Source: Escherichia coli
GTDB taxonomy: Bacteria; Pseudomonadota; Gammaproteobacteria; Enterobacterales; Enterobacteriaceae
Reading direction: 5' to 3' (one strand)
Assembly: GCF_003018235.1 (NCBI RefSeq)
Contig: NZ_CP027437.1
DNA length: 64,000 bases
The translations under genes were made by a program, and so were the position numbers. Below the pieces are notes generated by a model, which saw only the letters and a list, made by a program, of their open reading frames with translations, searched no databases and was not told the origin of the DNA. Numbering within the stretch: the first letter of the stretch is position 1; each line of letters opens with the position of its first letter. Of this stretch, positions 21,129 to 32,935 are shown one piece after another.

Positions 21129-21418
21129 GGTTCTCTCCCTAAAAATCTGTCTGGCAGGGTAGCGATTTGTGCGCATTGTCACGATTGAGATTTTTTAAGG
21201 TGAGAGGGAATTGATAATTTTTAGTTATGTGAAATCGTTGTTTTCTGTAGCGTAGATGCATTCTTCTGACTTCTTGTCTGAGAAAATGCATAAGAAAAAG
21301 TAGGTTAAAACTGAGAGGTGGAAAAGAAAGGTGCAATGTTAGCCATTGTGTTCACTGCACCTGGACCTTGGCTTACGCATCGGGTGTCTCAATCATCAAA
21401 AAGAGTTTTTAGTTTCGG

Positions 21419-22243
21419 CTATTTTTTCTCTGTAATTTTTACACTGTTTTCCAACTGCTTGATGCTGATCTGCGGGGTCGGCAACTCCTCAGGCATGGTT
21501 CCGCCAAGTTCCTGAATGGTTTGCCTCACCTTGCGACCCACGTCAAAGTGTGTGGTGTTAGCTTGCTGTTTTGAATTCACGCCATCCCGCTTGAGTTTTT
21601 CTTCTGTTTGGGTAGCTCGAAAGAGATTAGCCGCCAGTTCTGTTGAACCCATATGATCCAGGATCTTCTGACTCTTTTTCAGCCCCTTCCGCTGATGGAT
21701 GGCTTTCTGATCTAATCCACCATACAGCCCCCGGTAACCATGATTCTGAAATATGGCGAAATCGATAGCTGTCGCTACCCCAGCTTGCTGCGCTGCCTCA
21801 ACTAATTGTTTGTTATGTTCTTTCAACTCATTTCTCAGAAAAAGACGCTTTTCGTCTTCACGAAGTTGCCTGAAAGCTTCATCGTCAGCCAGCTCCTGTC
21901 GTCGGGTCTGGATAGCAAAATAAGTTTGCCCTGCCGCAATAACCGGTTTCGCAGGGTCGCCGTTTTGTACTACCAGGTAACAGGCATAGCGGGAGAGTAC
22001 GATGTCTTTTAATGCTCTTTTGGCATTTGAGCCAATTTTGACCATATCGAGGATCTCCTCGAAATGGTCATCAATTGTGTGACCACTATTCAGACAAGCT
22101 TCTTTGGCGCGCGTTAATACAGGTATAAAGTGACGATACTCTGAATAACCCAGTAGTTTCCCAAGTTGTCTTGCTGACCATTGTTCTGCTCCGTTTGCAT
22201 TAATCAGCTTTATCTCTTCAAAAGGTTGATGATGTTCGTTCAT
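21419..22243 (-). CDS. dinD: DNA-damage-inducible protein D
   Basis: 274 aa from MNEHHQPFEEIKL; LexA box upstream. Confidence 0.85.
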   Translation of the reverse strand: MNEHHQPFEEIKLINANGAEQWSARQLGKLLGYSEYRHFIPVLTRAKEACLNSGHTIDDHFEEILDMVKIGSNAKRALKDIVLSRYACYLVVQNGDPAKPVIAAGQTYFAIQTRRQELADDEAFRQLREDEKRLFLRNELKEHNKQLVEAAQQAGVATAIDFAIFQNHGYRGLYGGLDQKAIHQRKGLKKSQKILDHMGSTELAANLFRATQTEEKLKRDGVNSKQQANTTHFDVGRKVRQTIQELGGTMPEELPTPQISIKQLENSVKITEKK

Positions 22244-22288
22244 TGCCCACTCCATGTGATATCGATTGCAAGGAAAGTAAGTCTAAAA

Positions 22289-22304
22289 CTGTGTTTATAT
22301 ACAG
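22289..22304. promoter_or_regulatory. LexA (SOS) box CTGTGTTTATATACAG in dinD promoter
   Basis: CTG-N10-CAG palindrome with AT-rich core about 45 bp upstream of dinD start. Confidence 0.6.
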
Positions 22305-22463
22305 TTGTGAGTATCTCACGTTCTCACTGCGCTGGGCAAAAAAACATCGCAAAATCTGGAGCAGGCACGCAAAACAGAATTGAAGTTGCGGGGAAGAAAA
22401 ATGCCGCTCTGTTTGAGTGGGCGGCATTTGTGAAGGCTGAAAAGTAAGAATTGGCGTTACGAG

Positions 22464-23327
22464 TTATTCAATGTTCTGAATCTGCTCGCGCATCTGCTCA
22501 ATCAACACTTTCAGCTCAATCGCGGAGTTTGTCACTTCGGCATTGATAGACTTCGAAGCAAGAGTGTTCGACTCGCGGTTGAACTCCTGCATCATAAAGT
22601 CCAGACGACGGCCAACCGCTTCTTTTTTCTTCAGAATGTTGTAGGTCTCTTTGACATGCGCTTCGAGGCGGTCCAGTTCTTCGGCAACATCAATTCGTTG
22701 TGCCAGCAGAACCAACTCCTGCTCCAGGCGGTTGTTTTCCAGTTGCACTTGAGCATCTTCCAGCTTCGCGACCAGACGCTCACGCTGCCATTGCAGGATT
22801 TCCGGCATATGGGCGCGGACTTTGACTACTTCGGCGGTGACGCCTTCCAGACGCTGCTCGATCAATGCTTTCAGCGCCTGACCTTCGGTTTCGCGCGCGA
22901 CGATAAAGTCGTCCAGCGCACCATCCAGCGCCGCGAGAATTTCAGCGGCTATCGCGTCGAGATCCTGCTCCTGGGCTGCCATTACGCCCGGCCAGCGCAG
23001 AATATCAACCGGGTTGATTTCCCCTTCGTCACTCTGCATTTTTACCCAGTTCGCAGCAGTAACCAGCTGTTTAGCCAGTTTTTCGTTGAGGATCAGCTCA
23101 CCTTGCGCGCTGACATCTGGCTCATAGCGCAGGGTACATTCCACTTTACCGCGCGTCAGGCGAGAACGAATACGCTCGCGAACGACAGGTTCAAGGCTAC
23201 GGAACTGCTCCGGCAGACGAAAGTAAGTTTCCAGATAACGCTGGTTTACCGAGCGCATTTCCCAGGTTGCGCTCCCCCATTCACCCTTGATTTCACGCCG
23301 GGCGTAGGCGGTCATACTGCGGATCAT
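22464..23327 (-). CDS. yicC: YicC-family stress-induced protein (UPF0701)
   Basis: 287 aa; synteny between dinD and rph. Confidence 0.85.
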   Translation of the reverse strand: MIRSMTAYARREIKGEWGSATWEMRSVNQRYLETYFRLPEQFRSLEPVVRERIRSRLTRGKVECTLRYEPDVSAQGELILNEKLAKQLVTAANWVKMQSDEGEINPVDILRWPGVMAAQEQDLDAIAAEILAALDGALDDFIVARETEGQALKALIEQRLEGVTAEVVKVRAHMPEILQWQRERLVAKLEDAQVQLENNRLEQELVLLAQRIDVAEELDRLEAHVKETYNILKKKEAVGRRLDFMMQEFNRESNTLASKSINAEVTNSAIELKVLIEQMREQIQNIE

Positions 23328-23453
23328 AGACGTTCCTGTTTATAAAAGGAGAGGTGGAAGGATTATAGCCATCGATGCCTTGTCAGGATAGGAATAACCG
23401 CCGGAAGTCCGTATAATGCGCAGCCACATTTGTTTCAAGCCGGAGATTTCAAT

Positions 23454-24170
23454 ATGCGTCCAGCAGGCCGTAGCAATAATCAGGTGCGTCCCGTTACCCT
23501 GACTCGTAACTATACAAAACATGCAGAAGGCTCGGTGCTGGTCGAATTTGGCGATACCAAAGTGTTGTGTACCGCCTCTATTGAAGAAGGCGTGCCGCGC
23601 TTCCTGAAAGGTCAGGGCCAGGGCTGGATCACCGCAGAGTACGGCATGCTGCCACGCTCTACCCACACCCGTAACGCGCGTGAAGCGGCGAAAGGTAAGC
23701 AGGGTGGACGCACCATGGAAATCCAGCGTCTGATCGCCCGTGCTCTTCGCGCGGCAGTAGATTTGAAAGCGCTGGGTGAGTTCACCATTACGCTGGACTG
23801 CGACGTGCTTCAGGCTGATGGTGGCACTCGTACCGCGTCGATTACAGGTGCCTGCGTGGCGCTGGCAGATGCGCTACAGAAGCTGGTGGAAAACGGTAAG
23901 CTGAAAACCAATCCGATGAAAGGGATGGTAGCCGCGGTTTCTGTCGGGATTGTGAACGGCGAAGCGGTTTGCGATCTGGAATACGTTGAAGACTCTGCCG
24001 CAGAGACCGACATGAACGTAGTGATGACCGAAGACGGGCGCATCATTGAAGTGCAGGGGACGGCAGAAGGCGAACCGTTTACCCACGAAGAATTACTCAC
24101 CTTGTTGGCTCTGGCCCGAGGGGGAATCGAATCCATTGTAGCGACGCAGAAGGCGGCGCTGGCAAACTGA
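23454..24170 (+). CDS. rph: Ribonuclease PH (full-length)
   Basis: 238 aa from [16 protein letters not shown]; intact C-terminus (no K-12 rph-1 frameshift). Confidence 0.9.
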
Positions 24171-31876: not shown

Positions 31877-32935
31877 GTGGATAAGCCATTTCGAAGAATT
31901 TTGCTCATTAAGATGCGTTTTCATGGGGATATGTTATTAACTACTCCCGTCATTAGTTCGCTGAAAAAAAATTACCCTGACGCAAAAATCGATGTGCTGC
32001 TTTATCAGGACACCATCCCGATCCTGTCTGAAAATCCAGAGATTAACGCGCTCTACGGCATAAAAAATAAAAAAGCAAAAGCCTCAGAAAAAATCGCCAA
32101 CTTTTTTCATCTCATCAAGGTATTACGTGCCAATAAGTATGACCTTATCGTCAATCTTACCGATCAATGGATGGTTGCTATACTGGTTCGCTTATTAAAT
32201 GCCCGTGTGAAAATTTCCCAGGATTATCATCATCGGCAGTCTGCTTTTTGGCGTAAAAGTTTCACCCATTTGGTGCCGTTGCAGGGTGGAAATGTGGTGG
32301 AAAGTAACTTATCCGTGCTGACACCATTGGGACTTGATTCGTTGGTGAAGCAGACAACCATGAGTTACCCGCCTGCAAGCTGGAAACGTATGCGTCGCGA
32401 ACTTGATCACGCTGGTGTTGGACAAAATTATGTGGTTATCCAACCTACGGCGCGGCAAATCTTCAAATGCTGGGACAACGCCAAGTTTTCCGCTGTGATT
32501 GATGCCTTACATGCTCGTGGTTATGAAGTCGTTCTGACGTCCGGCCCAGATAAAGACGATCTGGCCTGCGTCAATGAAATTGCGCAGGGATGCCAGACGC
32601 CACCAGTAACGGCGCTGGCCGGAAAGGTGACCTTCCCGGAACTTGGTGCGTTAATCGATCATGCGCAGCTGTTTATTGGCGTTGATTCCGCACCGGCGCA
32701 TATTGCCGCAGCAGTTAATACGCCGCTGATATCGCTGTTTGGTGCGACAGACCATATTTTCTGGCGTCCCTGGTCAAATAACATGATTCAATTCTGGGCG
32801 GGAGATTACCGGGAAATGCCAACGCGCGATCAGCGTGACCGAAATGAGATGTATCTTTCGGTTATTCCGGCGGCAGATGTCATTGCTGCTGTCGATAAAT
32901 TACTGCCCTCCTCCACGACAGGTACGTCGTTATGA
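31877..32935 (+). CDS. waaQ: LPS heptosyltransferase III
   Basis: GT9 heptosyltransferase; start ambiguous (GTG 31877, TTG 31901 or ATG 31913). Confidence 0.85.
   Translation: MDKPFRRILLIKMRFHGDMLLTTPVISSLKKNYPDAKIDVLLYQDTIPILSENPEINALYGIKNKKAKASEKIANFFHLIKVLRANKYDLIVNLTDQWMVAILVRLLNARVKISQDYHHRQSAFWRKSFTHLVPLQGGNVVESNLSVLTPLGLDSLVKQTTMSYPPASWKRMRRELDHAGVGQNYVVIQPTARQIFKCWDNAKFSAVIDALHARGYEVVLTSGPDKDDLACVNEIAQGCQTPPVTALAGKVTFPELGALIDHAQLFIGVDSAPAHIAAAVNTPLISLFGATDHIFWRPWSNNMIQFWAGDYREMPTRDQRDRNEMYLSVIPAADVIAAVDKLLPSSTTGTSL

Follow-up and report, generated by a model that had tools for sequence, protein, structure and literature searches.

A Common One-Base Variant of the dinD LexA Operator in an Escherichia coli Genome

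The window considered in this study is a stretch of 64,000 nucleotides (64 kb) from Escherichia coli, and within it, immediately upstream of dinD, lies a short palindrome that an initial annotation had taken to be a LexA-binding site. With a probability of about 0.93, the site is the LexA operator (SOS box) of the dinD promoter, in a common allele that carries C at operator position 14 and from which LexA would be expected to be released somewhat faster, though the site is still a strong SOS box. Established directly were the sequence of the site, its orthology to the corresponding box of E. coli K-12, how it scores, how seldom such a score would arise by chance, and how far the site is conserved within E. 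coli. The box is, then, a known LexA operator with a common natural one-base variant, ordinary and expected in E. coli.

The 16-mer core of the box, CTGTGTTTATATACAG on the plus strand of the window and CTGTATATAAACACAG on the strand of the gene, is separated by 45 nt from the ATG of dinD. The initial annotation described a well-formed operator with an AT-rich spacer about 45 bp upstream of dinD, and this description is accurate, with the addition that dinD lies on the minus strand, a fact absent from that annotation. The arms of the palindrome (CTGT and ACAG) are both perfect and seven of the eight nucleotides in the spacer are A or T. The core differs from the ideal CTGTATATATATACAG at two of its 16 positions, and the full 20-mer matches the consensus TACTGTATATATATACAGTA at 16 of 20 bases and differs at four, which agrees with the departure of a few bases noted earlier. 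The positions penalised in the heterology scoring described below are 1, 12, 14 and 20. Operator position 14, which will be of particular concern, corresponds to position 22293 of the window (G on the plus strand, C on the minus strand). Features of the locus are collected in Table 1.

Table 1. Features of the yicC-dinD locus, in coordinates of the 64-kb window. Promoter elements are candidates.
Feature	Coordinates	Strand	Remarks
dinD coding sequence	21419..22243	-	ORF of 274 amino acids plus stop; DNA damage-inducible protein D, with N-terminal Bro-N domain
Shine-Dalgarno sequence GGAG	22250..22253	-	6 nt before the dinD ATG at 22243; read from the sequence
dinD LexA operator (SOS box), 20-mer	22287..22306	-	Gene strand reads AACTGTATATAAACACAGTT
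SOS box, 16-mer core	22289..22304	+	Exact match to CTGTGTTTATATACAG
Candidate extended -10, TGaGATACT	22310..22318	-	Hexamer GATACT at 22315..22310
Candidate -35, TTGCCC	22334..22339	-	18 nt upstream of the -10; conserved in alignments
Hairpin AAAUGCCGC...GCGGCAUUU, then UUUUCUU	22399..22429	-	Likely intrinsic terminator of yicC
yicC	22464..23327	-	YicC/YloC family endoribonuclease (TIGR00255, E = 8e-139); co-directional upstream neighbour of dinD

The identity of the gene is clear. The open reading frame, which bears the name dinD in annotated E. coli genomes, belongs to the NCBIfam equivalog NF008573 (485.7 bits, where the cut-off is 242; E = 4.6e-146), and the Bro-N domain (PF02498) occupies residues 10-105 of the protein. 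The position of the Shine-Dalgarno sequence favours the K-12-type start (MNEHH...) over another ATG at 22255. Between the stop codon of yicC (22464) and the candidate promoter of dinD lies a hairpin with a folding energy of -12.4 kcal/mol (z = -3.6), which none of 200 shuffled sequences equalled. The default terminator scan of positions 22100-22600 reported nothing; the loop of the hairpin exceeds the limit of the scan. The hairpin and the U-run that follows it downstream of yicC suggest that dinD has its own promoter, which the terminator would shield from yicC read-through. No RNA family was found in an Rfam scan of positions 21300-23500.

The locus is 95-99.7% identical to those in E. coli genomes. 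The window also contains, at 23454-24170 on the plus strand, a full-length rph encoding RNase PH (ending ...ATQKAALAN), a gene annotated in K-12 MG1655 as the truncated rph-1, and the strain from which the window comes is therefore not K-12. In K-12, lexA and dinD are about 0.4 Mb apart, and lexA falls outside the 64-kb window.

Comparison with the K-12 dinD operator, one of the checks proposed in the initial annotation, was made by aligning the yicC-dinD intergenic region with that of MG1655. The box of K-12 dinD (pcsA), AACTGTATATAAATACAGTT, proved to be the positional orthologue of the box in the window: it shares 19 of 20 bases and lies in the same order of genes (yicC-dinD-yicG) at an equal distance from the ATG. 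The candidate promoter, the Shine-Dalgarno sequence, the ATG and the first 11 codons are also the same. The one difference within the box is at operator position 14, T in K-12 but C in the window, and the two bases directly downstream of the box are TT in the window and AC in K-12. From the literature, AZT induces K-12 dinD 9.8-fold, an induction that depends 12-fold on LexA cleavage (PMC11228462), and ciprofloxacin induces the gene as well (PMC11002266).

The quality of a LexA-binding site may be expressed as its heterology index (HI), low values indicating sites close to the consensus. The index was computed with a heterology matrix of the Berg-von Hippel type, reconstructed from 18 K-12 SOS boxes (PMC3009722, Table 4), which is distinct from the original matrix of Lewis 1994. 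A symmetrised form of the matrix was chosen because it tracked published values (those of Courcelle 2001, as quoted in PMC11228462) more closely than did the orientation-specific form (Pearson r = 0.98 vs. 0.87). On this scale, the box of the window scores 4.70 and that of K-12 dinD 3.09, or 5.24 and 3.73, respectively, when dinD is omitted from the matrix; having C in place of T at operator position 14 raises the index by about 1.5-1.6. The published value for the K-12 box is 2.2, as quoted in PMC11228462, which would place the box of the window on the published scale at between about 3.8 (when the measured difference is added to 2.2) and 5.2 (by regression).

By any of these measures the index is low, as the initial annotation would have had it. 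An HI of about 15 has been given as the limit for LexA-regulated genes (PMC11002266), and the box of the window, at 4.7-5.2 on the rebuilt matrix, falls far below it. It scores better than the boxes of recA, sulA and lexA, and the published scale puts it on a par with, or ahead of, those of recN, uvrB, dinI, recA and sulA. When the matrix is built without dinD, just 5 of the 17 other K-12 boxes outscore it.

Might such a site nonetheless be an AT-rich palindrome that arose by chance and has no regulatory role? The loose pattern CTGT-N8-ACAG does arise randomly: it occurs three times in the window, as against 0.53 times expected, and 2 of 100 shuffled sequences reach that number, so the pattern taken alone is weak evidence. 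The score of the dinD box is another matter. At the base composition of the window, the probability of an HI of 5.24 or better is 9.3e-9 per position, so that 6e-4 such sites would be expected in 64 kb and 0.04 in a genome, and no other site in the window has an HI below 13 (the runner-up scores 13.4). The dinD copy is also the only one of the three loose matches with an AT-rich spacer. Since, in addition, the box is orthologous to an operator experimentally shown to be regulated by LexA and is kept across thousands of genomes (see below), a chance origin is effectively refuted.

The other two matches to the loose pattern, at 32735-32750 and 62902-62917, have GC-rich spacers, and neither has an HI below 14; they are not LexA-like. 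Two weak LexA-like sites were found at 32022-32041 and 23032-23051 (HI 13.4 and 14.0), the second within the coding sequence of yicC. Both are probably meaningless, since chance alone would supply from 0.7 to 3.7 sites per 64 kb at HI values of 12.6-15.

How LexA would act at the box depends on where the promoter lies. At a relaxed threshold, the top-scoring pair of hexamers is the candidate -35 and extended -10 of Table 1, which together match 8 of 12 consensus positions and have the TG motif besides; the default, stricter scan of positions 22100-22600 reported no promoter at threshold. The extended -10 element does not vary among the strains aligned (that of the window, K-12 and three others), and the candidate -35 is conserved as well. 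The pair predicts a transcription start near 22303 (+/- 2), and the SOS box would then extend from about -3 to +17. A full-text search of the literature for a mapped start of dinD transcription found none.

A different geometry may be considered, in which the -10 element is the TATAAA within the spacer of the operator and LexA competes for it directly, as in some strong SOS boxes. TATAAA matches the -10 consensus at five of six positions, and the relaxed scan lists it in combination with ACGTGA at a distance of 16 nt (7 of 12 positions). However, its -35 partners are poor (2 of 6), it lacks both the conserved final T and a TG extension, and it is outscored by the pair upstream, TTGCCC and TGaGATACT. 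I consider this arrangement unlikely. In either geometry, repression would come about through occlusion of RNA polymerase.

With the upstream pair as promoter, the sequence of events may be pictured as follows. In the undamaged cell, a LexA dimer would sit on the CTGT-N8-ACAG palindrome, which would lie on or just past the start of a weak extended -10 promoter (TTGCCC, 18 nt, TGaGATACT), and LexA bound at the start of transcription would be expected to block RNA polymerase. When DNA is damaged, RecA-stimulated self-cleavage would lower the level of LexA, the operator would empty and dinD would be transcribed.

In order to judge the substitution at position 14, I turn to the work of Culyba et al. 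(2018; PMC5999292), who varied positions 14 and 15 of a consensus operator. Of the four bases at position 14, T gave the tightest complex with LexA, because, in the authors' view, the methyl group of thymine occupies a hydrophobic pocket of LexA. The off-rate of LexA predicted the output of the promoter in vivo (r = -0.99), and position 15 outweighed position 14. The box of the window keeps A at position 15 and has C at position 14, so its complex with LexA may be expected to be somewhat shorter-lived than that of the K-12 operator; here the effect of position 14 is taken from that study, and I infer its size in this allele. The closest counterpart examined by Culyba et al. is their synthetic 'CA' operator (the consensus with C and A at positions 14-15), which bears the same substitution and was tested for off-rate and promoter output, albeit in a perfect-consensus background in the recA promoter, unlike the dinD context of the window. 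The earlier suggestion that departures from the ideal tune the strength of repression is thus supported for the one base that distinguishes the box from that of K-12, and this mutagenesis also lends indirect support to the predicted binding of LexA to the exact sequence in the window and to the predicted damage-inducibility of dinD in its strain.

The frequency of the allele was estimated by comparing two 40-nt queries that differ only at position 14 with 5,426 complete E. coli genomes. About 3,390 genomes carry T and about 800 carry C, while in 223 the box is interrupted. The box is thus kept, as one allele or the other, in about 4,200 genomes, and the C allele accounts for about 18% of the roughly 4,430 genomes that bear the promoter, among them the type strain ATCC 11775 and Nissle 1917. 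With so many carriers, C at position 14 is a common allele and no peculiarity of the window. Taken over its full length, the 321-bp region reaches an identity of 99% or more in only 11 genomes.

It could be supposed that the substitution weakens the operator so far that in this lineage dinD escapes most of its repression and the box is a relic rather than a working switch. Position 14 is contacted by LexA, C is bound less tightly than T, and the index does rise by the amount given above. Against this, an HI of 4.7 is still better than those of functional boxes (recA, sulA and lexA), the more important position 15 is intact, and the C allele persists unchanged in some 800 genomes. Furthermore, lexA box 1 (TGCTGTATATACTCACAGCA), yebG and polB naturally have C at position 14, with a right half-site (...CACAG) like that of the window, and all are LexA-regulated, even though they deviate more elsewhere (HI 6.3-13 as quoted from published values), whereas the box of the window is otherwise close to the consensus. 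A relic is therefore very improbable, and the box is better regarded as a working operator.

Interruption of the box in the 223 genomes is due to ISKox3 (ISL3 family), inserted within the spacer of the operator with an 8-bp target duplication: AACTGT-ATATAAAT-[IS]-ATATAAAT-ACAGTT. The exact junction is found in all 223. The half-sites come to lie about 1.3 kb apart and dinD is cut off from the candidate promoter; the transposase gene runs in the same direction as dinD. Examples are NZ_CP116159 (2666-2680 and 3990-4010 of the stretch containing the locus) and NZ_CP195356. Among the papers listed by a literature search for ISKox3 together with dinD, none contained both terms.

The gene itself varies within the species. 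Strain HH45 (NZ_CP116411, 3545-3745 of the locus stretch) has a dinD pseudogene that has lost its ATG and acquired frameshifts, and its yicC-dinD intergenic region is strongly divergent. Its box has decayed to AACTGTAGAAAATTAATGTT (HI 17.6), a form found in 1 of the 5,426 genomes. Decay of the box alongside the gene serves as a natural control, in support of the regulatory turnover considered below. Another pseudogene, in NZ_CM182088 (3291-3568 of the locus stretch), arose by internal deletion and is annotated as fragments, 'BRO family protein' and 'DnaD'; here the C-type box is intact. A second family of dinD alleles (NZ_CP114227, 1728-2552 of the locus stretch) shares with the window the promoter, the SOS box and the first 11 codons and diverges sharply only across residues ~12-90, that is, the Bro-N domain, which looks like a recombination cassette the size of a domain. 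The 3' half of dinD finds only a partial match in about 400 E. coli genomes and no match in about 710.

Beyond E. coli, the picture is one of a widespread gene and a sporadic operator. A scan of species-representative genomes with DinD gave at least 80 homologues, with 63-80% amino acid identity, from very diverse phyla; those listed include Chlamydiae, Bacteroidia, Chlorobi, Campylobacterales, Spirochaeta, Synergistaceae and many Proteobacteria, while no species of Escherichia besides E. coli is among them. Such identity across very distant phyla implies that a highly conserved gene has spread widely by horizontal transfer. For every homologue listed, 300 nt of upstream sequence were scored, a LexA-like box being defined by an HI below 12. 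Boxes were found in 4 of the 80 homologues listed (Citrobacter werkmanii, a Burkholderia, a Paraburkholderia and a Cupriavidus), as compared to 0 of 79 and 0 of 80 size-matched control segments. The four boxes lie 37-97 nt upstream of the aligned start. Those of Cupriavidus (CACTGTATATTCATACAGTA), Paraburkholderia and Burkholderia have the form CTGT-N8-ACAG, as in the window, and that of C. werkmanii has CTGT-N8-CCAG, but in all four both the genomic context and the sequence of the box are unlike those of the window. Since 76 of the 80 homologues listed have no box, the four were probably acquired independently.

More telling are the three homologues listed, from Pseudocitrobacter, Providencia and Morganella, that share with the window the context of yicC upstream. 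No LexA box was found at any of these syntenic dinD loci (best HI 19-23, in stretches 1375-1500, 1244-1490 and 1286-1510 of the respective loci). The initial annotation had looked to conservation in relatives as a test of the box: within E. coli the box is indeed conserved, but across genera it is not, and cross-genus conservation is therefore unusable as support. The absence from three genera suggests instead that the dinD operator was acquired in the Escherichia lineage, and I read it as regulatory turnover rather than as evidence against function, because regulation in K-12 has been shown by experiment. Comparison of these upstream regions indicates that only certain lineages have dinD under LexA control and that such control was not inherited with the gene.

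The SOS box of dinD is among the strongest and longest known of LexA operators, and to that extent its presence in the window matters little. Of modest interest besides are the splitting of the operator by ISKox3, the restriction of LexA control to the Escherichia lineage, and the natural C/T polymorphism at a base that is contacted by LexA and sets its off-rate, which offers a ready-made natural test of operator tuning. It is possible, although I put it forward tentatively, that the change from T to C constitutes a working cis-regulatory allele, in the fraction of promoter-bearing E. coli given above, with faster release of LexA causing dinD to be induced at a lower dose of damage or to a higher peak than in strains of the K-12 type. 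If this is so, then the timing of the SOS regulon would be tuned at the level of a single operator within one species, and the recurrent loss of the operator, through an insertion sequence in 223 genomes of E. coli and by the lack of a box at syntenic dinD elsewhere, would show LexA control of dinD to be evolutionarily labile.
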